A stretch of 64,000 nucleotides of DNA, from positions 9,885-73,884 of the forward strand of contig JAPDJV010000001.1 in the NCBI GenBank assembly GCA_029258925.1, read 5' to 3'. Both the position numbers and the translations under genes were made by a program. Of this stretch, positions 5,150-25,406 are shown in pieces. The notes beneath the pieces are model-generated. The model was not told the DNA's origin. It saw only the letters and a program-made list of their open reading frames with translations, and did no database searches. The first letter of the stretch is position 1. Each line of letters opens with the position of its first letter. Source of the stretch: Thermoproteota archaeon. Its GTDB lineage: Archaea > Thermoproteota > Thermoprotei_A > EX4484-217-1 > JAPDJV01.

Positions 5150-6021
5150 CAAAGATAATTACTGTTGCCGGGGGGAAGGGTGGGACAGGTAAGACGACGG
5201 TTGCAGTAAACCTGTCTTATCTCCTATCCAAGAGGGGGAAGACGATTTTAGTTGATGCAGATGTGGAGAATCCATGTGTTCCCGCAACTATAGCTGGGAG
5301 GATCGTAGTTAATAGAATTGTTGAAGTTAAAGGCTTTAAACCTGTATTCGATTACGGGAAATGCGTTAAATGCGGTCTATGCGTTGAAAAATGTCCAGAA
5401 CACTCCTTAACTATGCTGCCCAGTGGAAGAATAATTTACTTTGAAACCCTCTGCTCAGGATGTAGTTCATGTATGCTTGTTTGCCCAGCGAACGCTATAT
5501 CTGAAGGTTATAGATTGGAGGGATTGTTTAGGTTTGGAAGAGCCTTAGACACCATGGATGTTATTGTAGGCGAGATCGTTCCGGGCAATAGGAGAAGCGG
5601 AGTTCTCATAGCTAGGTTGATAGAGGAAAACTTGGAAAACTTTCGTAAATACGATTTCGTGGTAATTGATTCCCCTCCTGGAACGTTTGCAGGAGTATAC
5701 TCAACAATAAAACATGCTGAAACAATTCTGGCCGTTACTGAGCCAACACCTTTAGGGGTAAACGATCTGAGGAAATTCATTAAGCTTGCTCGGAAGTACG
5801 GTAAAGAAGACATTAACGTGGTTGTAAATAAGTATGGAATACCGGGAGGTTCATATGAGGAAATAGAGCGCATAGTGGAGGAATTAGGACTCCGATTATT
5901 TAAAATACCTTACAGTAGAATAGTGTTCGATTCTGTAGTGCGGGGAGTACTAGTAGTGGAGGAGTACCCCGAATCCGATGCAGCGAAAAGTATAGAGAGG
6001 CTAGCGCTCGCACTCTCATAA
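5146..6021 (+). CDS. MinD/Mrp-superfamily P-loop ATPase with inserted 2x[4Fe-4S] ferredoxin domain (paralog)
   Basis: GGKGGTGKT Walker A; CVKCGLCVEKCP and CSGCSSCMLVCP; start GTG overlaps upstream stop (GTGA), translational coupling. Confidence 0.7.
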   Translation: MTKIITVAGGKGGTGKTTVAVNLSYLLSKRGKTILVDADVENPCVPATIAGRIVVNRIVEVKGFKPVFDYGKCVKCGLCVEKCPEHSLTMLPSGRIIYFETLCSGCSSCMLVCPANAISEGYRLEGLFRFGRALDTMDVIVGEIVPGNRRSGVLIARLIEENLENFRKYDFVVIDSPPGTFAGVYSTIKHAETILAVTEPTPLGVNDLRKFIKLARKYGKEDINVVVNKYGIPGGSYEEIERIVEELGLRLFKIPYSRIVFDSVVRGVLVVEEYPESDAAKSIERLALALS

Positions 6022-6152
6022 GTAGCTTGAAACATATATTCCAGTAAAACTGCTATTAGCAATGGTTAAAGGAGGTGCTGGACCGAGTAAAATACTCCAT
6101 GGATTACTTGCGGCAAGCTCTCTATAAAGAGAGCAATGTCTAAAATGTCCTC

Positions 6153-6413
6153 TCAAATGTTTTCGCCAACTAGCACCTCAAATACTGGCGGGTTCTCAGC
6201 AACTATTTTAACACTTAAACCCTTTTTCCTAGCTATAACTCTTATAGTTTCCACAGGGATCCTCCTAGAATCCGTGATAACTTTTATGATTTCCCCTTTC
6301 CTGAGAGTCTTAACAGCTTTCTTTAGCCTTACTAGAGGGTGTTCCGTACATCCTGGGGGAGGCCTCCTTAAATCTATTATAATAATTTCCTCTTCCAATG
6401 GAGAAGTTTCCAT
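6153..6413 (-). CDS. TusA-like sulfurtransferase / sulfur-carrier protein (variant Cys motif)
   Basis: 86 aa; IDLRRPPPGCTEHPLVRLKKAVKTL aligns with TusA LDxRGLxCPxP..kk; C-x-x-x-P instead of CPxP. Confidence 0.5.
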   Translation of the reverse strand: METSPLEEEIIIIDLRRPPPGCTEHPLVRLKKAVKTLRKGEIIKVITDSRRIPVETIRVIARKKGLSVKIVAENPPVFEVLVGENI

Positions 6414-6416
6414 CGC

Positions 6417-6914
6417 CTACTCACTCCCCATTCTCTTATACATTAACTCCACGATCCTCTCCTCCCCTAACGCCTGTAATTCTTCTCTTGTAAGTTTCTC
6501 GGGAAGCCATTTAGACTTGACCTCTCTACTCTTATAGTATTCTCTAATAGCTCTTCTAAGCGCTCCAACTGCTAGTATGCCGCAGTGATACTTTATTGAG
6601 GGTAATCCGCCTAGTTCATCGGATACGTTTTTCCATGAAATATTCCATGCTTCTTCAAGGCTTAATCCCTTTATCATCTCGGTTAGAATGCTGGCTGTAG
6701 CTATGTTAGCTGCACAACCATAACTCTCGAAAGACGCTCTAACAACTGTTTCCTTCCCATCATCTATTTTCAAATATATTGCTATCATGTCTCCGCATGC
6801 AGGGCTACCTGCAATAGCTTTCACGGAGGCATCATCCATGTAACCCATGTTCTTGGGGTTCCTGAACAACTCTATTATTTTATGTGAGTGCGGTAAAGGT
6901 ATTCTAGTGGACAT
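6417..6914 (-). CDS. iscU: Fe-S cluster assembly scaffold IscU/NifU-N-terminal-like
   Basis: FRNPKNMG..GSPACGDMI..FESYGCAANIATASILTEMIKGLSLEEA..YHCGILAVGALRRAI follows the IscU consensus including the three ligand Cys; ~35 aa C-terminal extension. Confidence 0.75.
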   Translation of the reverse strand: MSTRIPLPHSHKIIELFRNPKNMGYMDDASVKAIAGSPACGDMIAIYLKIDDGKETVVRASFESYGCAANIATASILTEMIKGLSLEEAWNISWKNVSDELGGLPSIKYHCGILAVGALRRAIREYYKSREVKSKWLPEKLTREELQALGEERIVELMYKRMGSE

Positions 6915-8139
6915 TCTTGGCCCTCCTTGGCTTTATTGAGCTTATCCTCCTTAACCTATTAATTGATTCTTGTAACACCTTCAAAGTATACTCCACGTCC
7001 TCGGGGCTATGATATCTAGAAAGTTTGAACAGTATGCTTCCATGGGCCTCCTCGTGTCTCCTACCTATGGCTAAGAGGGCGTGGCTTGGTTCTAAGACTC
7101 TACTCGTGCAAGCACTCCCGCTCGAAACATATATTCCGTTAAGGCTTAACTCGATTGTTATAGCCTCTCCCTCAACATATAGGAAACTGACGTTGAGATT
7201 ATCTACAACTCTCTTCTCCCCTAATAGTCCGTTTACGAGTACTTCCTGAATTTCATCGAGTATCCCATTCAATAGCCTTTCTCTAAGCTCTTTAACATAA
7301 GTTACCTGCTTATTGAAGTCCCTGTAAACAAGCTCGGCAGCTTTATGGAACCCCACTATAGATGGTACATTCTCTACTCCCAGCCAAAGCGTTTGAGTGC
7401 TCAGTGCTCCATGGATTATTTTCTCGACTTTAACTCCATTTCTCACATATAGTGCACCTGCGCCTTTAGAAGCCAGTATTTTATGGTTGCTTAAAGTTAG
7501 CATGTCGACTCCAAGATCCTCAACGTTTATTGGAATCCTGCAATAGGCGTCAGCTGCATCAGTGTGAATAAGGGTTTGGGGATTAATTTCTTTAACAATT
7601 CTGCTTATCTCTCTCAAAGGCTGAATTGAACCTATTTCGTGGTTTACCAGTTGAATGCTGACTAGTACAGTGTCTTTGTCTATGAGTATTTCAAGAATAT
7701 CTAGGTCCACTATTCCTTCTTCGTCCACAGGTACTTGAACCACTTTAAAGCCCAGTTGTTCCAGACTATTTGCCGGTAAGAGTACACTGAAGTGTTCTAT
7801 GGCTGAGATAATTACCTTTCACTTCTTCCCTCCAATAGTGCTTCCAATTATTGCGAGATTATTCACCTCAGTACCACTATGTGTGAAGAATATTTCATCT
7901 GGTGAAGCATTTATGCTGCTTGCAATGAACTCTCTTGCTTCTAATAGAGCTTCAAGAGCCTCCCATCCCGGTTTATGAGTTATGGATGGATGACCATATC
8001 CTCTCTCATTGAAATACAGTATCATAGCTTCCAATACTTCCCTAGGAACCCATCCACTATTTTCCAGGTCGTAGTATACTTCCCTCGTAGGCTTTCCATG
8101 AACTCTCAATAACTCCCTTATCTTAGCTGACTCACTCAT
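6904..8139 (-). pseudogene. iscS: cysteine desulfurase IscS/NifS family interrupted by a single in-frame TGA (at 7819..7821)
   Basis: ORFs 7819..8139 (N-term, ..TEVNNLAIIGSTIGGKK*) and 6904..7743 (..LSNHKILASKGAGALYVR.., SGSACTS) are in the same frame; the stop-free reading KK*KVIISAIEHFSVL aligns with IscS KKGKHIITSKTEHKAVL, the TGA falling on a conserved Gly. Confidence 0.65.
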
Positions 8140-8211
8140 AAAATTATCTCTACTCGAATATACATATATAACACTGTTACAAATATCTTTCTAAGAGGAG
8201 GTACAGGAATA

Positions 8212-9447
8212 TTGGCTTTAAACCCTCATTTAATTAGAAGAGACTTCCCCATCTTAAATAGGAAAATCTACGGGAAGAAAATAATCTACTTGGATAATGC
8301 TGCAACATCTCAAAAACCATTACAGGTCATCAACGCTATTAAAAAATTCTATGAGACAAATAACGCGAACATACATAGAGGCGTACATAAGTTAAGCGAT
8401 GAAGCAACAGACTTATACGAGAAAGCTCGGGAGACTGTAGCCTCCTTCATAAATGCCGAGAAGTCTGAGAACATTGTCTTCGTTAGAAATACTACTGAGG
8501 CATTGAACTTAGTTGCATATTCCTGGGGCTTATTTAATGTTAATCCAGGCGATGAAATAGTTTTATCTATCATGGAACACCACAGCAACATGCTTCCGTG
8601 GATCAAACTTGCCGAAGTGAGGAACGCAGTAATTAAAATAGTCGATGTTGACGATTATGGAAGGCTCTCCATTGATGATCTAGAGGAAAAAATAACCGAG
8701 AAAACAAAGCTTGTGGCGATAACCCACATGTCAAACGTTACTGGGGTAATAAACGACGTAAAGAAAGTTACTAGAATAGCCAAGAGGCGGGGGGCAGTAG
8801 TGGTCGTCGATGGAGCACAAAGCGTGCCGCACATGCCAGTCGACGTTAGGAATATTGGAGCAGACTTCATGGCTTTCAGCGGCCACAAAATGCTTGGCCC
8901 AACTGGGATAGGAGTACTATATGTGAGTGAGGAGAGACTTAATGAAATGAACTGTTTTCTAACTGGTGGAGGAGTGATAAAGGAGGTGCACTACGTTAAT
9001 GGAGGGATAAGCGTTAAATGGGCTGAGCCACCATGGCTTCTCGAGGCTGGCACACCTAATATAGCGGGAGCAGTTGGCCTAATGGAGGCAGTCAACTACC
9101 TTAGGAGTGTGGGATTGGAGAACATTAGAAGGCATGAAATTGAACTAGTAAAACACTTACTTGACAGGTTTGCAGACGAGTTCAAAAACATACGTTTATG
9201 CGGTCCCCTAGATATTGTGGATAGGGGTGGAATAGTATCTTTCACTATAGGCTTATTCGATCCCCACAGCACAGCTATATTCCTAGACAGTGAGGGAATA
9301 GCTGTTAGAAGCGGCTTCCATTGTGCACAGCCACTGCACGAAAAGCTAGGATTTACTAGGGGAAGTGTTAGGGCAAGCTTCTACATATATAATACTGTGG
9401 AAGAAGTTGATTTTCTAGTTGAAGCATTGAAGAGAATTGTCCAGTGA
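8212..9447 (+). CDS. SufS/CsdA-type (class V aminotransferase fold) cysteine desulfurase
   Basis: 411 aa; N-terminal RRDFPIL..IYLDNAATSQKP, PLP-lysine context FSGHKMLGPTGIGVLYV, C-terminal GFHCAQP..RASFYIYNT typical of SufS group II. Confidence 0.7.
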   Translation: MALNPHLIRRDFPILNRKIYGKKIIYLDNAATSQKPLQVINAIKKFYETNNANIHRGVHKLSDEATDLYEKARETVASFINAEKSENIVFVRNTTEALNLVAYSWGLFNVNPGDEIVLSIMEHHSNMLPWIKLAEVRNAVIKIVDVDDYGRLSIDDLEEKITEKTKLVAITHMSNVTGVINDVKKVTRIAKRRGAVVVVDGAQSVPHMPVDVRNIGADFMAFSGHKMLGPTGIGVLYVSEERLNEMNCFLTGGGVIKEVHYVNGGISVKWAEPPWLLEAGTPNIAGAVGLMEAVNYLRSVGLENIRRHEIELVKHLLDRFADEFKNIRLCGPLDIVDRGGIVSFTIGLFDPHSTAIFLDSEGIAVRSGFHCAQPLHEKLGFTRGSVRASFYIYNTVEEVDFLVEALKRIVQ

Positions 9448-9494
9448 ACTCTAAGCTTTATATTTGAGTATAACACTGTTATATAGGGTTAGAA

Positions 9495-10441
9495 ATGAAA
9501 GCTGTTAAACAGAGAGCTAAGAGTGTTTCCAAACACCCTATCCCTGCTCGTAGATAACTGGCCAACACGCTTGTTAGGCTTGAAACAGAGTCGCATGGAG
9601 GTAAAGAGGTTTGGGCAAAGCTGGAATGCTATAATCCATTTAGTAAGAGCATAAAAGGATAGAGCAGTATGGGGTATGGTATTGAAGATGTTGGAGAAGA
9701 GGAGTCTAACAGAGGTCGTTATGGAGGCTACCTCAGGAAATGTGGGATTATCTCTTTTAAGCATTTGTAACATTCTAGGATTAAAATTCACTGCATTCAT
9801 TTTCTCGACAACTCCTCAAGCAACTGAGACACTCTTGAAGACTTTCGGAGCAAATGTTATCAGAACAAACTATGAAACAATAAACCAGGAGTTCTGGAGA
9901 GAGGTCCAAGAGTATGCCGAGAGTACTGGTGCCATCAATTTAAATCAATTCGAAAACGATGCAAACTTCGAAATCCACTACAATACTACAGCAGTGGAAA
10001 TATTGAAACAGTTGGAATCCATAGGTAGGAAACCGGACTATGTTTTTGCTGGAATAGGAACATCAGGGCATATAGCAGCTATTACTAAGAGAATTAGAGA
10101 GCGCTATGGTGGGAATGTGAGAGTTATAGGTGTTCAACCAGCTAGAGGATGCTCTATTCCTGGAATCAAGAGGGTTGAAACTAAGCCTAAGTGGATAAGG
10201 TGTGTGAGCGTAGATGAAGTGGTTGATGTAAGTAGAGCCGAAGCCATTGAGGGTACCATAGATTTGGCTATTAGGGAGGGTATATGTTGGTTTGAGCTCT
10301 GGAGCAGTCTATTCAGCCTACAAGAAGAAAGCCGGTATTAGGGGAACCTGTGTTCTAGTGTTTCCAGATGATGCTTTCAAATACGTTGAAGTATTCGAGG
10401 AATACTTGGCTCTTTCCAGACACCGCTTAGGTTTCAAGTGA
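9495..10441 (+). pseudogene. cysteine synthase / O-acetylserine (O-phosphoserine) sulfhydrylase family (PALP) pseudogene with three lesions
   Basis: Three frames give LANTLVRLETESHGGKEVWAKLECYNPFSKSIK / DRAVWGMV..TSGNVGLSL.. / IVGLSSGAVYSAYKKKAGIRGTCVLVFPDDAFKYVE, all cysteine-synthase hallmarks; in-frame TAA at 9555, +1 shift near 9655, +1 shift near 10285. Confidence 0.6.
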
Positions 10442-10738
10442 TTTTAATTTGTTAAGACTCTCTTAATGCTGTGAGTGCATGCTGATGTTACATGTTTGCC
10501 TAGTTTTCTACTCTCATAAACACTATTGGTCAGAGGAATATAGCGAGAACCAAGCTTCATCCTTATCTCAGTTTCCTCATTGCTCATCGGCTCAGTTCGA
10601 GGAGAAGTCCGAAGTGTTCAAGGGAGTTTTGGAGAGAAGGGAGAGAACGATCAGAGAGCTAGGGTTCTGAAAGATTATGTGGGAAACGGCATGAGGGTGA
10701 TGAAGGGGAGACGTGGAAACTATCAAAAAACTTGGATC

Positions 10739-11296
10739 CTAACAATGAGTGTTGAAGCACTTGGTATAGTTGAGTATCGTGGAGGCTTTCATCAGCGACT
10801 TGAAGGGAACTCCCATGCTCTCTATTCTACTCCTAGCACCCTGCTCTCTATCAACTACTACAACAGCTAAGATGGGCTCACCACCCTCGCTTCTAATAAC
10901 ATTTATAGCCGATGCAATGGAGCTTCCGGTAGTTGCCACATCGTCTACTATAATAACCCTCAAATTCTTAACGAATCCTTCAACTATCTTCATCTCCCCG
11001 TGCTCCTTTCTCTCCCTCCTAACATACGCCATAGGCTTGTTAGTTAATACAGCCATATAGCATGCTAAAGGTATGCCTCCAGTCGCTATTCCAACAAATC
11101 CATCGCACTCATCGACAGGAGATATCTCCAGCAATCCCTCTACAATTAGCCTAAATAATCTGGGTATACTCGGTACCGGCCTTAAATCTATGTAGTAAGC
11201 GCTTTTGATTCCACTTGTGAGAGTGAATTCTCCGAATTTGACTAGACCGTGTCTAAGCATAGATTCCACGATGTATTTTAGACGGTCGTCATCCAA
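10739..11296 (-). CDS. pyrE: orotate phosphoribosyltransferase
   Basis: 185 aa; PRPP-binding motif VIIVDDVATTGSSI; overall OPRTase pattern. Confidence 0.8.
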   Translation of the reverse strand: MDDDRLKYIVESMLRHGLVKFGEFTLTSGIKSAYYIDLRPVPSIPRLFRLIVEGLLEISPVDECDGFVGIATGGIPLACYMAVLTNKPMAYVRRERKEHGEMKIVEGFVKNLRVIIVDDVATTGSSIASAINVIRSEGGEPILAVVVVDREQGARSRIESMGVPFKSLMKASTILNYTKCFNTHC

Positions 11297-11354
11297 TTTA
11301 ATCGCCTTTAATTGAACTAGTATTTCAAACTATTAATTTAACTGTTGTCATGTT

Positions 11355-12023
11355 CTAGCCGTAGATTTTAGCTATTTTCCGCCTAGGATTATCCGAATAC
11401 GTTATGAGTCTACCTACGATCTCGTAATCAGCACCTGCTTCCAACGCTGTTTTAGGTGCAGCTCCTTGAGGTCCTATTCCAGGGGACAATATTTTCAGTC
11501 TGACTCCAACAATTTTCCTGATTTTACGTATTATTTGGGGTCTAGTTGCAGGGGCAACAACTCCCCATACACGTGCATTCTCGGATATTGCTATTAAGTT
11601 CTCTAGGTGCATGTCTATTAGTTCCATGGAGCCTGGATGACTCATGGAGACCACTGTTATCAGTTTCATGGACATTTCACTACATGTTTTAGAGAGTTCT
11701 CCCAGTCCACCTGCTAAACCTATGAAGGCGTGGGCTATTATTGCATTATATCCTACTTCACTCACTCTCTTCAATACTTCAGACATTATGAATCCTATGT
11801 CGGCAAGCTTGAAGTCCGCGATCTTTAGTTCACAGCTTCCCATAGCGTCTGCAAGCTCCTTCAAACCTCTCAAACCCACGTCTAAGAGTAGGGGGAGACC
11901 GATCTTGTAGCCCGCAACAATGTCTGCTGTAGACTCTATTATCCCCTTGCACCATTTTAATGAATCCGCTCCTCTAGGAGGGTCGAGCGCTATTATTACG
12001 TCTCTAGCTTTGATGGCGTCCAC
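11355..12023 (-). CDS. pyrF: orotidine 5'-phosphate decarboxylase
   Basis: 222 aa; IIALDPP..GYKIGLPLLL..ADFKLADIG motifs of OMP decarboxylase. Confidence 0.8.
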   Translation of the reverse strand: MDAIKARDVIIALDPPRGADSLKWCKGIIESTADIVAGYKIGLPLLLDVGLRGLKELADAMGSCELKIADFKLADIGFIMSEVLKRVSEVGYNAIIAHAFIGLAGGLGELSKTCSEMSMKLITVVSMSHPGSMELIDMHLENLIAISENARVWGVVAPATRPQIIRKIRKIVGVRLKILSPGIGPQGAAPKTALEAGADYEIVGRLITYSDNPRRKIAKIYG

Positions 12024-12030
12024 CCCTACG

Positions 12031-12468
12031 TTACTCGCTCAATATTATCTCGGTAAGGTAGTCTATTAGCTCTCTTATAGCATCCTTATTGATCTCGTAC
12101 ATTCTTATCTTCTTATAGCTCCTACACTTCACTATACCTAGACTCCTCATTAAGGCTAGGTGGTGGGAGATTAGGGTGCAGTCCTTATTCAGTATTCCTG
12201 CTATCACACATACACAGTGCGGTCTCCTCATAACTGCGAGCATTTTCAGTCTCAAGGGATTAGACAAACACTTCATCAGTAAAGCCGCTTTCTCCAACTT
12301 CTTATTTGAGGGCACCACTATTTCTTCCTCTAATCTATCCTCGTACGAGGATATTACATCCTCATGGTTCTTATAGTTTATTAATACGTCTTTCACCTTC
12401 AATATCATACCCTCCCCACCCAGTGTAGCCAATGAAATTCTTTTAAACATTTCACCACATTTACCCAT
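12031..12468 (-). CDS. ArsR/SmtB-family winged-helix transcriptional regulator
   Basis: 145 aa; LSNPLRLKMLAVM..CVCVIAGILNKDCTLISHHLALMRSLGIV matches the ArsR HTH (CVC metal-site-like); only 7 nt upstream of pyrF. Confidence 0.55.
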   Translation of the reverse strand: MGKCGEMFKRISLATLGGEGMILKVKDVLINYKNHEDVISSYEDRLEEEIVVPSNKKLEKAALLMKCLSNPLRLKMLAVMRRPHCVCVIAGILNKDCTLISHHLALMRSLGIVKCRSYKKIRMYEINKDAIRELIDYLTEIILSE

Positions 12469-12550
12469 GGTCGATCACGTAAGTCTTAAAAGGAGAATCC
12501 ATTACTTTGTAATGTTGATCAACAACCATGCTGCTTGCGGTGTATGATTA

Positions 12551-13690
12551 TTGAAGGAGAGAGTGTTGATAGTCGATCCCATTAGGAGCGGTGGTGTAGT
12601 ACCTGAGAGTGTGAAGAGAAGTCTTCTGGAATATTTGAATGGCTACTCTGTTTGCATGTACTGTCCAGGAGATTTACACAAAATAACTAAACCAAATATT
12701 AAGAGACTTATTCAAGTAGATCTCCCGGAGTTCATGGGGGCAGATGTTGTGAGACTAGTGCACGGTGCGAGAGAAGCATTTTTCACAGTATTCTACGCCT
12801 TATTCAAGGAACATGTTTTGACGCGGGGTGATAGGGCCCCAGTTATAGTTGTTGATGGAAATACACATTACTCTCTGGAGCTCGCGGCAGAGAGGTCTCT
12901 TCTGAAAATTATTGAAACGGAGACTTCTGGTTATCCATTGTTCAAAGTTGGTCTAGAACATTATGAGGAGGCTTTAGAGTCTGTTGTGGAGGAACACGGT
13001 AAGCCCCCTCTCGTAACATGCATAACATATCCCGATGGAAAATACGGTAACTTCCCCGATAACATTAAGGGAATAATTAAATTAGCGAGGGAACATGGTA
13101 GCTATACTCTAATCAACGCAGCTTACTCCATTGGAAGAATGCCCGTGAGCTTAAGGGATCTTGAAGCAGACTTCATCGTTGGGTCGGCACACAAGTCTAT
13201 GGCGTGTTCAGGACCCTTGGGAGTACTTGGAATGAGGGAGGAAGCGGCAAGTTTAGTATTGAAGAGAAGTGTTCGCCATCCATCAAAGGAAGTAGAGTTG
13301 CTTGGCTGTACCGTTAGAGGTCTGCCTGCAGTATGCCTCATCATGGTAATGCCTTATCTGAGGAGGAGAGTTAAGGAGTGGGAGAGAGTAGTCGATCTAG
13401 CTAGATACTTCTACGAGAGAGCTGAGAGAGAGCTGGGGTTAATGCTTTTGGGAGAGAAACCACATAGCCATGACCTACTTCACTTCGAAACACCTGCTTT
13501 CTACAAGATTTCCCTAAAACTGAGAGACAGGTTTTTCTTATACAAAGAGTTGAAGAAGAGAGGCATTATTGGAGTTAAGCCTGGAATAACGAAGAGAATT
13601 AAATTGAGTACTTACCTACTTAATAGGGAAGAGGTAGACTACGTTCTAGACAGTCTAAGAGAAATATTGGAGTTAGGTGAAGGTGACTAA
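12551..13690 (+). CDS. O-phospho-L-seryl-tRNA(Cys):Cys-tRNA synthase (SepCysS), PLP-dependent
   Basis: 379 aa fold-type I PLP enzyme; CxxC near residues 35/38 (CMYC), PLP-Lys in SAHKSMAC followed by a Cys, the conserved trio described for SepCysS; immediately upstream of and overlapping a SepRS-like gene; TTG start. Confidence 0.6.
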   Translation: MKERVLIVDPIRSGGVVPESVKRSLLEYLNGYSVCMYCPGDLHKITKPNIKRLIQVDLPEFMGADVVRLVHGAREAFFTVFYALFKEHVLTRGDRAPVIVVDGNTHYSLELAAERSLLKIIETETSGYPLFKVGLEHYEEALESVVEEHGKPPLVTCITYPDGKYGNFPDNIKGIIKLAREHGSYTLINAAYSIGRMPVSLRDLEADFIVGSAHKSMACSGPLGVLGMREEAASLVLKRSVRHPSKEVELLGCTVRGLPAVCLIMVMPYLRRRVKEWERVVDLARYFYERAERELGLMLLGEKPHSHDLLHFETPAFYKISLKLRDRFFLYKELKKRGIIGVKPGITKRIKLSTYLLNREEVDYVLDSLREILELGEGD

Positions 13691-15215
13691 TGTGAAACTT
13701 GATATCCAAAGAATTCTAAGAGACTTGGATAAAGAAGAGTTCACTACGGTTTGGGGAAATTATTCTGAAATAATTCCTAGAAAAGGAGGCAAATTAAAGC
13801 TTCCTGAGACCGAGGGCAAGCCCAGCATACTGTTAGAAGTGCTCTTCAAAGTTAGGAAAGCGCTTCTGAACTTAGGGTTCGAGGAAGTGGTCAATCCAAT
13901 ATTCATAGATTCCTCTGAAGTATATCGCCAATATGGTCCTGAAGCCCCTATAATACTTGACAGAATATACTTTCTAGCAGATCTCCCAAGACCAGACATA
14001 GGGTTAGATAAGAAGACCGTTGAGAAAATTAAAGCGATCTCCCAGAACATAAATTTGAGAGTACTTCAAGCAGTTCTGAGGGAGTACAAGGAGAGGAAAA
14101 TAAGTTCTGATGACCTCGTAGGCGAGTTGAAGAAGAGACTACATATTGAAGACCACGAAGCTCTCAAAATACTCGAACTTTTCGAACCCCTAATAAAGCT
14201 CACCCCAATACCGTCATCTCTAACTCTGAGATCCCATATGACTGGAGCCTGGTTTTCTACAATATCGGAAATCTTGGAGTGGAGAGATCCCCCACTATAC
14301 CTATTCTCAATAGACTGGGTTTTCAGGAGGGAACAAAGAGTTGATGAATCCCACCTAAAGTATTATCATTCAGCCTCCATAGTTGTAGTTGATGAGGATC
14401 TTAGTGATGATATAGCTCACAGCTTGACTAGGATAGTGCTAGAGAAAATAGGTTTCAAGAAGTTCAAGACAGTGTTGAAAGATGATACAGCAAGATATTA
14501 TGCCAAGGGCAGGGAGTGGGAGGTATATTTAGATTTCATGGGTGAAGAATATGAGGTTGGAACTTACGGACTATACTCTCCAATATCCCTAGCAAAATAC
14601 GGCATACCCTACCCAGTCTACAACTTCGGTATAGGCTTAGAGAGGCTGGCTCAGGTCATAGTTGGTGAGAGAGATATTAGGAGAATCCTTTTCCCATACA
14701 AATACTTTAAGCTCAGCGATCAAGAAATAGCGGAGCGCATAAAGCCCTTAAGGAGGCCGGAGACGTCTAAGGGAAAACATATCGAGAGAGTGCTGCTGGA
14801 AAAAATATGGGAGCTAAAGGATAAAATTGGTCCATTCAAGGAAAAAATCTACGAGGATGAAGATGTTACGATATTCCTGTGGGAACCAGATCCTAAGCCG
14901 TATGCTGGTAAAGCAACTTTCAACAAGATCTATGTTAAGGACGGGGGCATTATCAGTAGCATAGAGGATATAAGCGGAGTGTACATTGGCCGCTATGTGG
15001 ACTTTATAGTTAAAATGATAGCGTCAAGTATTGAGAGAGGGTTCAGGGGAGTTATTAGGGTTAAGTGGGCTAATGGTCCCTCGGACATAAACGTGCATAT
15101 TCCAAGTAAGATAGTGAAATACATTAACACTATTGGTGGGAGAATAGATATTAAAGGACCTGTGTTTGTAGATGTGATAGTAGAGGACTCTACTAAAGAA
15201 AAGCTCAAAACATAA
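13677..15215 (+). CDS. O-phosphoseryl-tRNA synthetase (SepRS), class II aaRS related to PheRS alpha
   Basis: 512 aa; class II motif 3 GIGLERLAQVIVGERDIRRILFPY located mid-protein and followed by ~180 aa C-terminal domain, the SepRS layout rather than PheRS; 14-nt overlap with SepCysS. Confidence 0.55.
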   Translation: MKVTNVKLDIQRILRDLDKEEFTTVWGNYSEIIPRKGGKLKLPETEGKPSILLEVLFKVRKALLNLGFEEVVNPIFIDSSEVYRQYGPEAPIILDRIYFLADLPRPDIGLDKKTVEKIKAISQNINLRVLQAVLREYKERKISSDDLVGELKKRLHIEDHEALKILELFEPLIKLTPIPSSLTLRSHMTGAWFSTISEILEWRDPPLYLFSIDWVFRREQRVDESHLKYYHSASIVVVDEDLSDDIAHSLTRIVLEKIGFKKFKTVLKDDTARYYAKGREWEVYLDFMGEEYEVGTYGLYSPISLAKYGIPYPVYNFGIGLERLAQVIVGERDIRRILFPYKYFKLSDQEIAERIKPLRRPETSKGKHIERVLLEKIWELKDKIGPFKEKIYEDEDVTIFLWEPDPKPYAGKATFNKIYVKDGGIISSIEDISGVYIGRYVDFIVKMIASSIERGFRGVIRVKWANGPSDINVHIPSKIVKYINTIGGRIDIKGPVFVDVIVEDSTKEKLKT

Positions 15216-15271
15216 TACTTTTATCGATTTCAGTTAACAAGTAGTTAGCACGATTTCAGATTATTGAGCAG

Positions 15272-15958
15272 ATGGTGTCCATGATAGTAGACCTCCACGT
15301 CCACACAAAATTTTCAGATGGACTAATGTCACCTAGGGAAGTATTGAAGATAGCTAGGAGAATAGGTCTTTCAGGAGTAGCTATAACAGATCATGATACC
15401 GTAGATGGGTGCCTAGAGGCTATTAGAGCTAACGTGAGTGGAGATCTGTTAGTCGTTCCCGGAATAGAAGTTTCAACGCCTAGCGGCCATATTTTAGTGT
15501 ACGGTTTACATGAAGCTCCGAGAAAAAATGTGAGTGTTGAAGAACTCATCGACTACGCTAGATCCCAAGGTGCAGTGACGGCACTAGCCCACCCCTTTGG
15601 AAAAGTGTTCTTCGGAAAATATCCAATAGTTGACTCGGAGATCGTCGAGAGGCTTGACTTGATTGAGGGGATTAATGGGAGAATTCCTATGGTGAGCAAT
15701 AGGAAAGCTATAGCTTTAGCCCTCGCCTACGGGAAACCCGCGATAGGGGGGAGTGATGCTCATATTCCCGAGGAACTGGGAACTGCTGCAACATATCTCT
15801 TAGAGAACTGCGAGAATGTCGACGATTTTCTAGTCACTTTAAGGAAGGGTTTATGTAGACCTATTGGGAACACGAGTTTCACAAATATTTTGGGTGGAGT
15901 AGTTAGGAGATTTTATAGGAGAGTTCTCCTAACACTCAATATTATAACCCTCCGTTGA
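15272..15958 (+). CDS. PHP-domain metal-dependent phosphoesterase
   Basis: 228 aa; N-terminal VDLHVHTKFSDG, ITDHDTVDG, later His/Asp residues of the PHP fold. Confidence 0.6.
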   Translation: MVSMIVDLHVHTKFSDGLMSPREVLKIARRIGLSGVAITDHDTVDGCLEAIRANVSGDLLVVPGIEVSTPSGHILVYGLHEAPRKNVSVEELIDYARSQGAVTALAHPFGKVFFGKYPIVDSEIVERLDLIEGINGRIPMVSNRKAIALALAYGKPAIGGSDAHIPEELGTAATYLLENCENVDDFLVTLRKGLCRPIGNTSFTNILGGVVRRFYRRVLLTLNIITLR

Positions 15959-15986
15959 AATAATTATCCTAGTATAAGTCGAGTAG

Positions 15987-17114
15987 GTGGATGTGATAAC
16001 TTTGACCTGGATTTACCTGAGACCTGATGCAATAAGTGTTTGGGAGAACAGTGAGGTTAGAGATAGACTTTCCTGGTATTACAGGGTTATGAGAGATTTG
16101 GCTCCAGCCAGATTCATAATATGCAAGCATATTCCAGTTGAACAGGATCCCTCCTCCCTCAGCGTAGAAGAATTGTGGAAGCAGCACGATAAGGCTGCAG
16201 AAGAGTTTTGGAAAATATATCGCGAAATAGATTCAGGCGAAATGAAACTGGAGGAGTTGGAGAAGCCTAAGTGGAGTCTCCTAGACGTTAAAGCCGAGCT
16301 AGCTAAGAGGATCATCGAATCTTGTAGGCTATGTGAGCATAGATGCGGAGTTAATAGGCTTAAGGGGGAGAGAGGATTTTGCAGACTCTCTTCCGAGACA
16401 ATAGTTGACTCCTGGTTCCTACATTACGGAGAAGAAGCCCCCCTGGTCCCCAGCGGGACAATATTTTATGGAAGCTGTAATTTTAGATGCGTTTTCTGCC
16501 AAAACTATATGATATCCCAGGTGAAGCCGTTCGATGGTATTGTAGTTGATGAAAAACAGTTGGCCCTAATGCAGGAGGAGTTGAGGAGAAAGGGTGCTAG
16601 GAACATAAACCATGTTGGAGGAGAGCCAACTCCCCACCTTCACACGATAATCTCTTCAATGAAGCACTTAGATGAGAATACTCCTCAACTCTGGAATAGC
16701 AACATGTACTGTAGCGTTGAGGCAATGAAGCTGTTACTGGAGGTCATCGACATATGGCTACCTGACTTAAAGTACGGTAATAACAATTGTGCAAGTAGAC
16801 TTTCAGGCATCAAGGGTTACTGGGAGATTGCATCAAGGAATATTAAGATGGCCCACGACCACGGAGACATAATTATAAGACACCTAGTCTTACCGAATCA
16901 TCTTGAGTGCTGCACTAGACCAATTCTGGAGTGGATTTCAAAGAATTGTCCAAGATCCCTAGTAAACGTTATGGAGCAGTATAGACCAATGTACCTCGTA
17001 CCAAGGTATCCCGACAAATACAAGGACATTGCTAGACCTCTTAAAGCAGATGAGATCAAAGAAGCGTATAAGATCGCCGAGGAATTGGGCATAGTATTCG
17101 AGCCAGTAAGCTAA
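15987..17114 (+). CDS. radical SAM enzyme, PFL-activase-like (AmmeMemoRadiSam-type)
   Basis: 375 aa; N-terminal Cys cluster CRLCEHRCGVN..GFCRL then canonical CNFRCVFCQN (CxxxCxxC) radical SAM motif. Confidence 0.55.
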   Translation: MDVITLTWIYLRPDAISVWENSEVRDRLSWYYRVMRDLAPARFIICKHIPVEQDPSSLSVEELWKQHDKAAEEFWKIYREIDSGEMKLEELEKPKWSLLDVKAELAKRIIESCRLCEHRCGVNRLKGERGFCRLSSETIVDSWFLHYGEEAPLVPSGTIFYGSCNFRCVFCQNYMISQVKPFDGIVVDEKQLALMQEELRRKGARNINHVGGEPTPHLHTIISSMKHLDENTPQLWNSNMYCSVEAMKLLLEVIDIWLPDLKYGNNNCASRLSGIKGYWEIASRNIKMAHDHGDIIIRHLVLPNHLECCTRPILEWISKNCPRSLVNVMEQYRPMYLVPRYPDKYKDIARPLKADEIKEAYKIAEELGIVFEPVS

Positions 17115-17122
17115 GGTGATAT

Positions 17123-17338
17123 TTGGAGATGGGGGAAATAACCATAGTTTTTTCGCCGGGAGGAGAGAAGAGAAGAATAGTGGTAGATGAATCGATGAGA
17201 GTCAGAGAACTCCTAAAAACGCTGCTTTTAGATGAGGAAAGCGTTGTAGTTGTTAGGGGGGATGAGGTATTAACTGAGGACAGAGTAGTTAGACCTGGAG
17301 AAATACTAACAGTTTTCAACGTTATGTCTGGAGGCTGA
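17123..17338 (+). CDS. ThiS/MoaD-family ubiquitin-like sulfur-carrier protein (SAMP/TtuB-like), C-terminal Gly-Gly
   Basis: 71 aa, ends ..VFNVMSGG-stop; beta-grasp size; directly upstream of TtuA/NcsA gene. Confidence 0.6.
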   Translation: MEMGEITIVFSPGGEKRRIVVDESMRVRELLKTLLLDEESVVVVRGDEVLTEDRVVRPGEILTVFNVMSGG

Positions 17339-17341
17339 AAA

Positions 17342-18301
17342 TTGAAATGTAAATATTGTAATGGAAAAGCTGTAATATATGTTAGGAGAACAAGGACACC
17401 GCTCTGCCCCAGCCACCTAGAAGAATACCTCATAAAAAATGTGGTAAAAGTCTTCAAGCACTATAGAATAGACTTGTCAAATAAGAAGATATTGATAGCG
17501 TTATCTGGCGGTAAAGATAGTTCAACTATGGCGAGTTTAATGAAGAAGCTTTCTGAAGTAGAAGACTTTGAGGTTGTCGGATTATACATCGACCTCGGCA
17601 TACCAAAATATTCTGATTACAGCTTGAAAGCTGTAGAAAAACTTTCGAGAAGCCTCGATCTAGAAGTTAGAACAATAAATCTTAGGGAAGCCTTAGGCTT
17701 CAATATTTCCGATACCGGATTTAAGAGGAGGACTATTTGTAGTGCATGTGGAATAATAAAGAGGTATCTAATGAATTATGCTGCATTAGTCGATGGTTGC
17801 CAGATCATAGCGACTGGGCACACTTTAGACGACATAACAGCCTACATTCTCAAATCCTACATAACACAGGATCTGAAAAGTCTCGTAAAGTTAGGCGTCT
17901 ACAATCCGCCTTTAAACAAGCTTATCCCCGGAAAAGTTAAGCCCCTCGGATACGTAAGTGAGAAAGAAAGTTTAGTTTACGTGTTATCATCGAATTACCC
18001 CTTCTACCATGAGGAGTGCCCATACGTCTCCCATGAAACCATAGAATTCCAAGCAAAGAGATTTCTCAACATGGTTGAAGCCAAGCATCCAGGCATAAAA
18101 CTTTACATGCTTAGAGAATACGAGAAAAATAGGCAATTATACGAGAAGCTGGTGGAGTACCCACCACTAAGGAGATGTAAAATATGTGGTATGCCTTCTC
18201 AAAGAGAAGTTTGCTCTTTTTGCAGCATAGTAAAGAGAATTACTGGAAGCTATGATAGCGTTCTAAAAATGTGGGAGAATAATTTTCTCAGAATCATTTA
18301 A
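17342..18301 (+). CDS. tRNA 2-thiolation PP-loop ATPase, TtuA/NcsA (Ncs6/Ctu1) family
   Basis: 319 aa; N-terminal CxxC..C..H zinc finger, PP-loop SGGKDS, C-terminal CKICG..CSFCS zinc finger. Confidence 0.7.
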   Translation: MKCKYCNGKAVIYVRRTRTPLCPSHLEEYLIKNVVKVFKHYRIDLSNKKILIALSGGKDSSTMASLMKKLSEVEDFEVVGLYIDLGIPKYSDYSLKAVEKLSRSLDLEVRTINLREALGFNISDTGFKRRTICSACGIIKRYLMNYAALVDGCQIIATGHTLDDITAYILKSYITQDLKSLVKLGVYNPPLNKLIPGKVKPLGYVSEKESLVYVLSSNYPFYHEECPYVSHETIEFQAKRFLNMVEAKHPGIKLYMLREYEKNRQLYEKLVEYPPLRRCKICGMPSQREVCSFCSIVKRITGSYDSVLKMWENNFLRII

Positions 18302-18346
18302 ATTCTCAAAAACATTACAGAGACCTAAGATTTTAGGTGATCAGAT

Positions 18347-19597
18347 ATGGTCGACTACAAGGTTAAAGATATTAGACTAGCAGACGAGGGAAGGAGGCTT
18401 ATAGAATGGGCTGAAACACTTATGCCGGTCCTCATGAGCATAAGAAGGAGGCTTAAAGAAAAAAAGCCTTTAGAGGGCTTAAAGATAGCGGCATGCCTAC
18501 ACGTAACAAAGGAGACCGCCGTCTTAGTTAGAACACTTAGAAGCGGTGGAGCACAAGTATCGCTTGCGGCAAGCAACCCTCTTTCAACACAGGACGAGGT
18601 TGCAGCAGCACTGGCCGATGAGGGTTTTAGAGTATACGCTTGGAGGGGAGAGAACAAGGAGGAATACTTCTGGTGTATAAGGAAGATACTTGAAGTTGAA
18701 CCCAGCATAGTTCTAGATGATGGCGGAGATCTCCATGTCCTCGTTCACAGGGAATTCCCCGATCTAGCAGAGAGGATCCTAGGTGGCACAGAGGAAACCA
18801 CTACAGGTATTGTAAGACTAAGGTCTATGGAGAGGGAGGGAGTTCTAAAATACCCTGTCATAGCAGTAAACAATGCTCTAACGAAGTTCTTATTTGATAA
18901 TCGCTATGGGACAGGGCAAAGTAGCATAGACGGAATAATAAGGGCAACAAACATTCTCATCGCTGGAAAAAGAGTAGTAGTTGCAGGTTACGGATGGGTT
19001 GGCAGGGGGATAGCTATGAGGGCCAGAGGTATGGGGGCTCACGTAATAGTTACAGAGGTGAACCCCATAAGGGCGCTAGAGGCATTCATGGACGGCTTCG
19101 AAGTAATGAGCATGGAGGAGGCAGCTAGAATTGGAGACGTGTTCATAACAGCAACAGGCAACATTAAAGTCATAGATCGCCAGCACATAGAGTTAATGAA
19201 GGATGGTGCAATATTGGCTAACGCAGGACACTTTAACGTTGAAATAAACATAGATGCGCTCGAATCCCTAGCTTCCAGTAAGAGAATTGTAAGAAGAAAT
19301 GTTGAGGAATACGTGCTTAAAGATGGAAGGAGAATATATCTTTTAGCTGAGGGAAGACTAGTAAACCTGGTTGCAGCCGAGGGACACCCAAGCGAAGTAA
19401 TGGATCTATCCTTCTCAAACCAGGCGTTATCAGTAGAATACTTGAAGAAGAGCAGCGGATTATTAAGTGCAAAACTACACAATGTTCCGAGCGAAATAGA
19501 TGAAATGGTTGCGAAAATAAAGCTGGAGTCTCTAGGGATAAAAATTGATGAGCTCACAGAGGAGCAGAGGAAGTATCTGGAAAGCTGGATTATTTAA
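18347..19597 (+). CDS. ahcY: S-adenosyl-L-homocysteine hydrolase
   Basis: 416 aa; DYKVKDI..LAD, NAD-binding [10 protein letters not shown], archaeal short form. Confidence 0.85.
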
Positions 19598-19645
19598 TGC
19601 AACAACTCTATGTGGCCTCTCTTGCTCCAATGCCCCATGTATCGG

Positions 19646-21202: not shown

Positions 21203-21486
21203 TTAGATAAACCGATATTAATTAAGCATTTCCTAAATTATATTAATTAGAATTATATTGATTAGCTGAAGAATCAGTACTGTTAAGTCAAAAGACTAGC
21301 ATTCGAAACCAGAGCTCTGAGCAATTTCAAGCATAAAGAATTTCTTAATTTTAAACATGTCCAATACTACTATTTGCTATCGTGCTTTCTCTCTGCATTA
21401 ACCGTAATTCTTTAATTAACTCCTTCACTATTTCCCTTCGCATACTAAAAGATGAGGCTAGAAGACTTGCTAGATACTTTTCATTA

Positions 21487-21880
21487 TTATAAAGTAATTT
21501 TTACAAATATGTTTAATGATACCCCAACAGCGCTCACTAACTCCAATAGTATTGCATATAGTGCTCGAAGATCTTGTCTCTCTCCTTCAAGAATTTTCCT
21601 GAAAATATTTGACATGATGATTACGTTATCGTATATTAATGGTTCCAAGAGAGTCCCTGCATTCTCTCCAGCTACCCCCACTGCTAACCTCTCCGATGTC
21701 AATTAGAGTTTTAAGGGTTTCAGCTATTTTCAAGTGTTCGCAAGCCAACCACTTCAATAATGTTTTGAGTTTCAAGTCTCCTACTCTATTAGCGAATTCG
21801 ATTTTAGCCTTAACACTAGCATACATAAGCTTGTAGAAACACTTCGCCCAGTTCTCTACTTCAGCAGAATTTAAAGCCAT
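21487..21880 (-). pseudogene. small helical protein gene split across two overlapping frames at a C5/G5 run (ferritin-like? frameshifted)
   Basis: ORFs 21626..21880 and 21487..21702 overlap by 77 nt; frames switch at the GGGGG run (21675..21679 on plus strand); joint product ~135 aa. Confidence 0.2.
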
Positions 21881-21957
21881 ATATTTACATCATACAAGTA
21901 ATTAATTTGGCAGAACCAACTAAAATTAGTTAGGTAGTAATAATAATAAGACTATTA

Positions 21958-22890
21958 CTATAATCTGTGGGCTAAACCTACGCACTGACCTAAATCACTT
22001 ATTTCGAGTTTAACCAGTAGTTCTTCGAATTCGTGTAGGATCTCCCTAAGAACCACAACACCTCTATCAATTATAGCTGAACCAACCTGTATAGCGCTTG
22101 CTCCAGCAAATATCATTTCAAGAGCAGATTCGCCGTTTACTACGCCTCCAGCTCCTATTATTAGTGGTTCTAGTTCGGAGTATACTTCATAAATTAGTCT
22201 CACAGCAACTGGGTGGAGAGGTGGGCCTGATAATCCTCCATAAATATTTGTTAGAACTGGTCTCCCAGTGTAGACATCTATGATCATGGCTTTAATGGTA
22301 TTTGATATGGTCAATGCTTTTGCACCTGCTTCAAGAGCTTTCCCCGCTATCTTGACTATGTTGTCCGATGGGCCAAGCTTCGCTATTACAGGTATCTTAA
22401 GTACCGATGAAACCATACCTGTTATGTACTTGGTTGCCTCAGGGTCTTGGCCGAAGACTAGTCCGTATCCCTCGGTGTGGGGGCAGCTTAGGTTTAACTC
22501 TACTGCTGACGCTTTGGCCTCCTCTGCTTCAATAGATACTTCAAGATATTCGTCGGCTGACGACCCCGCAACGCTAACTATTACTGGTACACCGAGTTCA
22601 AGCCCTACACTAACAATACTCCTAATAATCTCTTTCCCGGGGTTCTCTAGTCCAACAGCATTTATGTACCCACCGCAGGGGAGTTTTACTAGGATAGGCG
22701 GATTGTTACCTAATCTAGGTTTAGGAGTTATGGACTTCGTTACAACAGCTGAACACCCTCCTTCAACAATGAGCCTTCTAATTAGTCCTGGCGAAGAAGA
22801 CACTACTCCAGACGCGTTCATAAATGGGTGTGCGAGTCTTATTCCCGCTAGGTTTATTCTTAAATTAGGGTGCGAATTATTTATTTGCAA
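21958..22890 (-). CDS. pyrD: dihydroorotate dehydrogenase catalytic subunit (class 1B)
   Basis: 310 aa; LAGIRLAHPFMNASGV.., FMN-binding TIM-barrel motifs; follows pyrK. Confidence 0.8.
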   Translation of the reverse strand: MQINNSHPNLRINLAGIRLAHPFMNASGVVSSSPGLIRRLIVEGGCSAVVTKSITPKPRLGNNPPILVKLPCGGYINAVGLENPGKEIIRSIVSVGLELGVPVIVSVAGSSADEYLEVSIEAEEAKASAVELNLSCPHTEGYGLVFGQDPEATKYITGMVSSVLKIPVIAKLGPSDNIVKIAGKALEAGAKALTISNTIKAMIIDVYTGRPVLTNIYGGLSGPPLHPVAVRLIYEVYSELEPLIIGAGGVVNGESALEMIFAGASAIQVGSAIIDRGVVVLREILHEFEELLVKLEISDLGQCVGLAHRL

Positions 22891-24130
22891 TCACCTCTCC
22901 ATCATAGAATACTATTTTGCCTTTAACGATGGTTGCATGTATTCTGCATTTAACCGCGAAGTTTTCGAAAGGCGTGTACTTTGCTTTACTATAGAAGTTC
23001 TCAGGTTTTATTTTATATTCTTCCCCCAATTTAAGTAGTGTCATCGAAGCAACATACCCCCTCTCTATTTCACCCATCCTATGTAGTCCGAGAATTCTGG
23101 AAGGATTCCTACACATCAACTTCACAATATCGCTTACGGATATTACATTTTTTTCTACTAGCGTCCACGTCAGCGGGAGCATTGTTTCCAATCCCGGAAT
23201 CCCGGAGGGGCAGTTCATGAAAGATCGTTGTTTCTCTTCTAGGCTGTGGGGCGCGTGGTCGCTGGAAATACAGTCGATTAAGCCTGTTCTGAGAGCAATC
23301 AGCAATCCCTGAACTATGGTTTTCGGCCTTAAAGGCGGATTGACTTTTCCGTAACACCCATATTCCTTCTCATAAGAATTATTTAGGAGCACGTAGTGGG
23401 GGCATGTATCAACAGTTGCGCCAAGAGCCCTAGCTCTTACGGCGGTCTCAAATGATGTTATGTGCGTGAAGTGTATTCCGGAAATCATGTTACCGAATTT
23501 TTCCTGAAAGTATGCTACTGACTCCAATTCCGCTCTAAGAGGTCTGTATCTCCACCTCATGCCTGGAACAGTAGTCTCCCTTAGACATTCCGGATGCTCC
23601 GGATGTACTACGACTAGTTTCCTCTTTTCCAAGGATTTCGAAACACATTCTCCTAGAATCGGTGAGTGGTAGTCTTCAGGGTACACTTTGAGTCCGGCCA
23701 CCTTCTTCTCAGATAACAGAGAGTCTGCTTCCTCAATTCTACTAGGTACGCCGACATATACCAGGTAGTCTACTATGCACTTCTCTTTTAGAGACTTTAT
23801 TTTCTCCTTTAATACATTAAAGCTTCTTATCTGGGGTCTAGTATTGGGCATGTCGGCTACTAATACTACTCCCCCCGCTGCCGCTGCAGCTGAACCAGAA
23901 GACTCGTCCTCTTTATACGATAATTCTAGTCCTCGGAGATGTACGTGCATGTCGACTACTCCCGGAATCAGAAGAAAACCGTTTTCTACAGAGTAATCTA
24001 GTACTGTTTCGGCTCTCTCCGAGTAAGCTTCTCCGTGAACGCCCTTTATTATCCCGTTTTCAACAGTAACTGTACCTTTAACTATTCTTCCTCTATAGAA
24101 AATGTTCCCCCTATAAACGATGTCTGCCAC
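22877..24130 (-). CDS. pyrC: dihydroorotase
   Basis: 417 aa amidohydrolase; VDMHVHLR metal motif, DHAPH; sits inside the pyrB-I-K-C-D operon. Confidence 0.75.
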   Translation of the reverse strand: MADIVYRGNIFYRGRIVKGTVTVENGIIKGVHGEAYSERAETVLDYSVENGFLLIPGVVDMHVHLRGLELSYKEDESSGSAAAAAGGVVLVADMPNTRPQIRSFNVLKEKIKSLKEKCIVDYLVYVGVPSRIEEADSLLSEKKVAGLKVYPEDYHSPILGECVSKSLEKRKLVVVHPEHPECLRETTVPGMRWRYRPLRAELESVAYFQEKFGNMISGIHFTHITSFETAVRARALGATVDTCPHYVLLNNSYEKEYGCYGKVNPPLRPKTIVQGLLIALRTGLIDCISSDHAPHSLEEKQRSFMNCPSGIPGLETMLPLTWTLVEKNVISVSDIVKLMCRNPSRILGLHRMGEIERGYVASMTLLKLGEEYKIKPENFYSKAKYTPFENFAVKCRIHATIVKGKIVFYDGEVIANK

Positions 24131-24909: not shown

Positions 24910-24922
24910 TTTTTCCCTTCAC

Positions 24923-25402: not shown

Positions 25403-25406
25403 TAAC

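Follow-up and report, generated by a model that had tools for sequence, protein, structure and literature searches.

A predicted sepCysS-sepS operon with a divergent SepRS lies near a decaying cysteine-synthase gene in an uncultured Thermoprotei archaeon

The tRNA-dependent route to cysteine, which relies on SepRS, an O-phosphoseryl-tRNA synthetase, and on SepCysS, a Sep-tRNA:Cys-tRNA synthase, has been described beyond the methanogens in TACK archaea (among them uncultured Crenarchaeota groups and deeply branching Thermoprotei), in Asgard and DPANN archaea, and in some bacteria (PMC5424206, PMC8762117). Here we analyze a SepRS/SepCysS gene pair in a 64,000-nucleotide stretch of DNA from a Thermoproteota archaeon (assembly GCA_029258925.1, contig JAPDJV010000001.1, positions 9,885 to 73,884 of the forward strand), hereafter the window, numbered from its first letter. 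A first-pass annotation of this DNA had described the pathway as methanogen- and Archaeoglobus-associated, a view that is out of date given the TACK reports of 2017 and 2022 (PMC5424206, PMC8762117). Since the two enzymes have already been reported in TACK archaea and Thermoprotei, the operon presented here is a useful added data point and no surprise. Judged from sequence, the best explanation of the whole, to which we assign a probability of roughly 0.9, is that an uncultured Thermoprotei archaeon carries a functional two-gene sepCysS-sepS operon of a distinct enzyme lineage together with a decaying free-cysteine gene, and that the tRNA-bound route has probably taken over.

The two genes lie on the plus strand. 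sepCysS (12551-13690) encodes a pyridoxal phosphate (PLP)-dependent SepCysS of 379 aa when read from the first TTG, and sepS (13677-15215) encodes a SepRS of 512 aa from a GTG start. Other gene callers begin sepCysS at 12566 (374 aa), and the likely start is 12563 or 12566, which is preceded by GGAG; for sepS there is an alternative start at 13683 (510 aa). The earlier annotation had identified the overlapping open reading frames (ORFs) as SepRS and SepCysS, and this stands. It had placed the synthetase gene first, however, and the actual order is sepCysS followed by sepS. The 14-nt overlap, together with a GGTGA-like stretch directly 5' of the sepS start, makes translational coupling likely and suggests that the two genes may be carried on one transcript. 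Between two strains, sepCysS and sepS together differ by 10 synonymous and 3 non-synonymous changes, the pattern of functional constraint, and we take the operon to be under purifying selection.

The same two enzymes are known from Archaeoglobus fulgidus as SepRS (2du3) and SepCysS1 (2e7i/2e7j), and both window proteins align with them over their full length. The window SepCysS shares 48% identity with one from A. fulgidus and is likewise a short form that lacks the 8-aa insertion, whereas the window SepRS is ~22 residues shorter than its counterpart and the host belongs to the Thermoprotei, not to Archaeoglobus. The proteins of the Methanocaldococcus jannaschii transsulfursome, SepRS-SepCysE-SepCysS (5x6b/5x6c), are matched at E 3e-90 (SepRS) and E 3e-92 (SepCysS) with identical catalytic motifs, but residues 1-50 of the M. 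jannaschii SepCysS have no counterpart in the window protein. The spacers flanking the pair measure 82 nt and 56 nt, and no gene for the adaptor SepCysE or for SepCysSn fits in them; the remaining window was not scanned with a SepCysE profile.

The identity of the PLP enzyme is supported by profiles, structures and individual residues. It scores 424.8 bits against the SepCysS equivalog TIGR02539 (cutoff 365.25; profile positions 8-367 of 370) and 393.2 bits against NF006810 (cutoff 301), while the next unrelated family in the NCBIfam scan, SufS, reaches only 34 bits. Across the two ORFs of the operon the profile-match E-values range from 1e-111 to 1e-127, far beyond chance. End-to-end alignments were obtained with two PDB entries, that of the A. 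fulgidus SepCysS (2e7i) at E 9e-102 and that of the M. jannaschii enzyme (3wkr) at E 3e-92. The trio of CxxC, Lys and Cys noticed in the first-pass annotation can be followed residue by residue in the 2e7i alignment, where C35, C38, K215 and C253 fall on A. fulgidus C39, C42, K209 (the PLP lysine) and C247. The protein is of the short form, with neither the N-terminal extension nor the 8-aa insertion after A. fulgidus residue 234. Outside its own clade the nearest named relatives are from Archaeoglobi (47-51% identity), and the window SepCysS comes closest to the Archaeoglobus type.

Against the sepS profile TIGR00470 the synthetase reaches 371.3 bits in a match that covers positions 7-530 of the 533 in the profile, while PheRS-alpha gives 65.9 bits, and it retrieves the SepRS entries 2du7, 2odr and 2du3 from the PDB with E values of 3e-90 to 5e-78, compared with 5e-8 for PheRS. 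Its class II catalytic core (PF01409, 105 bits) contains motif 2, FRRE, at residues 216-219 and motif 3, GIGLERL, at residues 319-325; the latter is the motif that had been noticed earlier in the 512-aa protein. The threonine of SHMT and the two serines of HSAS, which belong to the phosphoserine pocket in the A. fulgidus structure, are kept as T189 and as S232 and S234, along with N317-F-G319, both relative to M. jannaschii and across the clade of close relatives described below. True SepRS are described as keeping the Asn-X-Gly element without exception, and degenerate SepRS-like proteins as having it altered (PMC8762117). Residues 344-502 on their own match the anticodon-binding domain of A. 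fulgidus SepRS (355-531) with E 1.7e-5, and the anticodon-binding domain at the C-terminus of the window protein is homologous but divergent.

To place the enzyme we used a distance tree of 134 SepRS sequences and another for a subset of 26, in which M. jannaschii served as the reference, both by neighbour-joining only. In the larger tree the window SepRS falls within a clade of ~14 proteins of 496-519 aa that share 50-56% identity; at least 12 members can be counted, almost entirely unnamed in databases, and the clade is not listed in the supplement of PMC8762117. In the subset all 200 of the 200 bootstraps recovered it as monophyletic. The clade stands apart from a group of ~534-aa proteins that includes a named Thermoprotei SepRS, one of Nezhaarchaeota and one from Bathyarchaeota (P0023), and in the subset it groups at 90% with sequences from Altiarchaeota and Dehalococcoidia and with the other Bathyarchaeota sequence, P0040.

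This separation is also evident when the locus is compared with the TACK-type SepRS, known from metagenome-assembled genomes (MAGs) of Thermoprotei, Nezhaarchaeota and Bathyarchaeota and found in clusters with TRAX and endonuclease V (PMC5424206, PMC8762117). The family and the host superphylum are the same and the identity is 40-44%, but the window SepRS belongs to a separate clade, has a length of ~500 instead of ~534 aa, lacks the GIP...helix segment, gives no detectable PF18006 match, and sits in an operon with SepCysS instead of being flanked by TRAX and endonuclease V. Neither of these usual partners was found among the window ORFs scanned or in the 9.3 kb to the left of the window.

A proposed m1G37-recognition motif is typical of archaeal SepRS and dispensable for activity in bacterial SepRS, in which the replacement of Ile444 by a hydrophilic residue and the loss of the adjacent helix have been linked to loss of m1G37 recognition (PMC5424206). 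The window SepRS does not carry this motif: Ser aligns with A. fulgidus Ile444, and the helix that follows (KKWRSFF) is deleted. All 12 of 12 clade members have a 16-column gap in the anticodon-binding domain, as do the Dehalococcoidia enzymes, the alignment of this loop being of moderate confidence. The bacterial SepRS-SepCysS operons of Dehalococcoidia and Parcubacteria (PMC5424206) resemble the window locus in their layout, in a SepRS of ~500 aa, in the hydrophilic residue for Ile444 and the lost helix, and in a SepCysS without the 8-aa insertion. They differ from it in that the window SepRS forms part of a well-separated clade (38-40% identity), in that its host is archaeal, and in that its SepCysS, unlike most bacterial ones, retains the loop at A. 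fulgidus residues 144-147.

Linkage of the two genes extends to the relatives. In all seven of the seven clade relatives with DNA available, SepCysS adjoins SepRS, as an overlapping gene, as a divergent gene, or with one gene in between. In one of these relatives (L018), a serine-dehydratase-alpha-like gene (PF03313, 11553-12806 of that locus) is located between sepS and sepCysS, and after it come an unannotated 390-aa gene and a weak tRNA-synt_1b match.

A second element bears on how the host obtains cysteine. The first-pass annotation had reported a degraded cysteine-synthase gene about 2 kb from the operon, and a gene of the CysM/O-phosphoserine-sulfhydrylase type is indeed present as a pseudogene at 9523-10441 on the plus strand, 2.1 kb upstream of the operon and between sufS and pyrE. 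Three-frame translation recovers its pieces in different frames. Comparison with a contig from the Joint Genome Institute (JGI) that is 99% identical (L021) sets the true start at GTG 9523 and locates three frameshifts, at ~9568 (-1), ~9653 (+1) and ~10284 (-2, in a TA repeat). The first two, a deletion and an insertion relative to L021, which has neither, scramble 28 codons including the catalytic-lysine motif and introduce a stop. The 2-nt loss at ~10284 is common to the window and L021 and shifts the frame of the final ~50 codons, among them those of the conserved SSGA segment. A TAA at 9555 that looks in-frame was considered as a possible nonsense mutation and rejected: the frame starts at GTG 9523, and the lesion seen against L021 is the 1-nt deletion at ~9568. 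Across the pseudogene region a 51-kb Logan contig (L070) is identical to the window. Between two strains the gene shows 5 non-synonymous and 3 synonymous changes in addition to the indels, and we conclude that it is a real pseudogene, one that is still gaining lesions.

When the frame is repaired, a 306-aa product results, of which residues 1-296 align with intact single-ORF homologues of ~300 aa from other metagenomes. It scores 170.5 bits against TIGR01136 cysKM (cutoff 344; profile positions 10-294 of 299), and 161-170 bits, well under the cutoffs, across the cysKM and cysM profiles. Among solved structures it matches best the cysteine synthase/CysO of Aeropyrum pernix (1wkv, also 3vsa; E 2e-46), with residues 1-294 aligned to 83-380 and both the SxKDR lysine motif and IPGI(K/R)R kept, whereas an N-terminal domain of ~80 residues is missing from the window gene, which the three frameshifts also disrupt. 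The A. pernix enzyme is the O-phosphoserine sulfhydrylase; members of the pseudogene's subfamily may act on O-phosphoserine or on O-acetylserine.

Homologues of this gene were seen elsewhere in various states. One that is 54-57% identical (locus L061, Ga0190367_1000511, 5992-6868) is likewise split into two ORFs, and a second from the same sample (L063) is intact; neither of these two loci (9-13 kb) carries SepRS or SepCysS. In many of the loci L023-L045 the CysM-like domain occupies residues ~282-577 of a stop-to-stop frame of ~580-600 codons, which suggests either a fused N-terminal domain of ~280 residues or an in-frame upstream gene.

Our model for cysteine supply takes its chemistry from the characterised enzymes of A. 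fulgidus and the methanogens. SepRS would charge tRNA(Cys) with O-phosphoserine, and SepCysS, a PLP enzyme, would exchange the phosphate for sulfur by means of its three conserved cysteines to give Cys-tRNA(Cys). The lineage would once have had a free-cysteine route as well, through the CysM/O-phosphoserine-sulfhydrylase-type synthase whose gene is now in decay. Because this gene is decaying, the tRNA-bound route, possibly with cysteine derived from peptides, has probably taken over the supply. That cysteine is made mainly or only on tRNA, as the first-pass annotation suggested, is a plausible hypothesis. The window also encodes peptidases and an Opp/Dpp-type transporter, which suggests peptide use and that cysteine could come from peptides too.

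Several observations weigh against this reading and have to be set beside it. The TIGR00470 score of the synthetase is 9 bits under the NCBIfam equivalog cutoff of 380.65, and the Pfam domain SepRS_C (PF18006) was not detected in it at E<=1e-3. Ten clade relatives score 346-405 bits against the same profile and so straddle the cutoff, which argues for a divergent SepRS clade and not for a different enzyme. No tRNA(Cys) was found in the window with ARAGORN and Rfam, nor in nine related loci with ARAGORN. The region examined comprised ~73 kb, made up of the window and the adjoining 9.3 kb on its left. Neither cysteinyl-tRNA synthetase (CysRS) nor an intact cysK or cysM was found in these ~73 kb, a result that says little about the remaining >1 Mb; serine and phosphoserine genes were likewise not found in the window and the 9.3 kb to the left. 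The pseudogene reaches 170 bits where the cutoff is 344, and its former function is assigned by family only. Finally, the window has other single-gene lesions, a TGA in nifS and a frameshift in an M20-family peptidase gene, some of which may be assembly or strain noise.

The alternative that survives best is that the pair is real but redundant, with CysRS and/or another cysteine synthase encoded as well and the decayed gene a dispensable paralogue. SepRS/SepCysS would then be supplementary or mainly biosynthetic, the situation of Methanococcus maripaludis and of Methanosarcina. Some organisms are known to have SepRS alongside CysRS, and SepRS there may serve mainly cysteine biosynthesis (PMC8762117). 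The region inspected, just ~73 kb, leaves room for such genes, and free cysteine seems to be in use in this organism, since sufS is intact and nifS is intact in other assemblies. No direct counter-evidence is at hand; what the pseudogene does show is the loss, in two strains, of one or more routes to free cysteine. We regard redundancy as evenly poised, with as much chance of being right as wrong.

Instead of having been inherited within Thermoprotei, the operon may have arrived by horizontal transfer, as a cassette of two genes whose donor was of euryarchaeal or DPANN type. The ValRS gene (57412-59859, minus strand) has its best named matches in Thermoprotei, with 68% identity to a Desulfurococcales MAG, 64-66% to Thermoprotei MAGs, 60-62% to Thermoproteales, Thermofilaceae, Thermofilum and Infirmifilum, and 53-55% to Nezhaarchaeota, Bathyarchaeota and Nitrososphaerota; the earlier description of the genome as crenarchaeote-like agrees with this placement. 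The SepRS clade excludes the ~534-aa clade with the named Thermoprotei and joins Altiarchaeota, Dehalococcoidia and P0040 at 90%, and SepCysS is closest to that of Archaeoglobi. An operon of SepRS and SepCysS is a layout ascribed to DPANN, early-branching Euryarchaeota and bacteria (PMC8762117). The MAG labels within the clade are mixed (Thermoprotei, Nitrososphaerales and Aenigmatarchaeota) and the G+C content of its loci spans 27-42%; a housekeeping protein in common with the relative L017, PGI, is just 34% identical, compared with 56-62% for the operon proteins. These points are countered by several others. The G+C content of the operon (0.42) is the same as the average over the window and thus gives no sign of a recent transfer. 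The SepRS identity to the Nitrososphaerales-labelled relative (55%) is close to the ValRS identity between those groups (54%), which leaves room for old vertical descent within TACK. In addition, the labels given to MAGs cannot be relied on, the two PGI proteins may be paralogous, and the trees are neighbour-joining only. On balance we consider horizontal acquisition plausible, with the odds slightly against it.

A further alternative holds that the cysteine-synthase gene is intact in the organism and that its degradation is an assembly artefact. The same population is represented in JGI sample 3300014911 (L015, L021), in the 51-kb Logan contig (L070/L071; L070 is 99.97% identical to the window) and in contigs from the European Nucleotide Archive (ENA), which allows the lesions to be compared. 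At two of the three frameshifts the length changes by a single base, and both of these are missing from the JGI strain; other lesions of the window also differ between assemblies. In nifS (6904-8139, minus strand), a single frame is interrupted by one in-frame TGA at 7819-7821, where homologues have Gly; L070 has GGA at this codon and an intact 411-aa gene. We rejected both a fixed nifS pseudogene and recoding of UGA to Gly, given the GGA of L070 and the use of TGA as a normal stop in neighbouring genes, and the TGA is best taken as a strain single-nucleotide polymorphism or an assembly error. The M20-family peptidase gene (42616-43970, minus strand) is split into ORFs at 42616-43356 and 43398-43970 by a frameshift near 43360-43400. 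The window and L070 differ by two 1-nt indels, at 2364 and 5084; the latter gives the ORF of a CbiA/ParA-type Fe-S ATPase a different C-terminus (294 versus 278 aa), and the ENA contig L072 has the window version. The nifS, M20 and indel lesions mean that gene decay is not specific to the cysteine genes. What speaks for a genuine pseudogene is that the 2-nt loss at ~10284, alone among the lesions of the window, is confirmed by an independent assembly: the window, Logan L070 and JGI L021, whose assembly was independent, all have it, and it cuts off the C-terminal ~50 residues with the SSGA segment. The ratio of 5 non-synonymous to 3 synonymous changes points the same way, and an artefact is therefore improbable.

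The weakest alternative, that the pair is a PheRS-alpha paralogue beside a generic class-V aminotransferase, cysteine desulfurase or SepSecS, draws on the Pfam results (for the synthetase, nothing beyond PF01409, the core in common with PheRS; for the PLP enzyme, PF05889 SepSecS and Aminotran_5), but we reject a PheRS-alpha, generic-aminotransferase or SepSecS identity as barely credible, because the profile check for PheRS alpha and class-V aminotransferases returned SepRS (371 against 66 bits) and SepCysS (425 against 34 bits for SufS) as best matches, the best PDB matches are exclusively SepRS and SepCysS, the catalytic, Sep-pocket and Asn-X-Gly residues are intact, unlike those of the SepRS-like proteins of PMC8762117, and no selenocysteine machinery appears among the ORFs scanned.

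The surroundings of the operon are rich in sulfur and tRNA genes, which form a run from ~6150 to 19600 consisting of tusA, nifU, nifS, sufS, the cysteine-synthase pseudogene, sepCysS, sepS, and genes for a PHP-domain protein, a radical SAM protein, a TtuA-type tRNA thiolase and adenosylhomocysteinase, interrupted only by pyrE, pyrF and arsR. The nifS-nifU-tusA cluster (6153-8139, minus strand) was assigned by hidden Markov models (HMMs), and the intact SufS-type cysteine desulfurase (8212-9447, plus strand) scores 538.5 bits against TIGR01979 sufS (cutoff 475). Downstream of the operon, the TtuA-type tRNA 2-thiolation enzyme (17342-18301, plus strand) combines PF22082 (TtuA LIM) with a PP-loop domain and scores 231.6 bits against NF049949, below the cutoff of 450.

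Immediately upstream of the operon, the earlier annotation had placed an ArsR-type regulator and pyrEF on the opposite strand, and HMM matches agree: pyrE (10739-11296), pyrF (11355-12023) and a gene for an ArsR/SmtB-family helix-turn-helix regulator (12031-12468; NF033788 54.3 bits, PF01022 30 bits) are all on the minus strand. The regulator gene and sepCysS are divergent and separated by the 82-nt spacer. Regulation of the operon by its product is possible; the adjacency is not kept in relatives.

Apart from the sulfur genes, pyrimidine-biosynthesis genes are spread over 10739-12023, 21958-26345 and 52610-53863 (pyrE, pyrF, pyrD, pyrC, a pyrK-like Fe-S subunit, pyrI and pyrB), together with a second dihydroorotase-like paralogue that falls below its equivalog cutoff. 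The intergenic regions 21203-21957 (755 bp) and 33681-34705 (1025 bp) contain short ORFs only and gave no tRNA or Rfam match.

The known mechanism of tRNA-dependent cysteine formation and its known superphylum-level distribution are unchanged by this locus. What it adds is a well-documented case from the Thermoprotei, in a lineage with 60-62% ValRS identity to Thermofilum and Infirmifilum. It also draws attention to a SepRS clade whose scores border on the NCBIfam cutoff, which leaves most of its members without a name when MAGs are annotated. The comparison of strains, with one frameshift in common and two extra, provides a small, clean snapshot of a free-cysteine gene being lost beside a tRNA-bound route. 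We offer one joint proposal as a tentative conjecture that we think unlikely as a whole: the clade may be an undescribed group of archaeal SepRS that, like the bacterial enzymes, has lost the m1G37 helix, and a self-sufficient two-gene cassette with an Archaeoglobus-type SepCysS may have displaced the O-phosphoserine-sulfhydrylase-type synthase in peptide-using Thermoprotei. If this is true, the replacement of the free-cysteine route would have been caught in progress.

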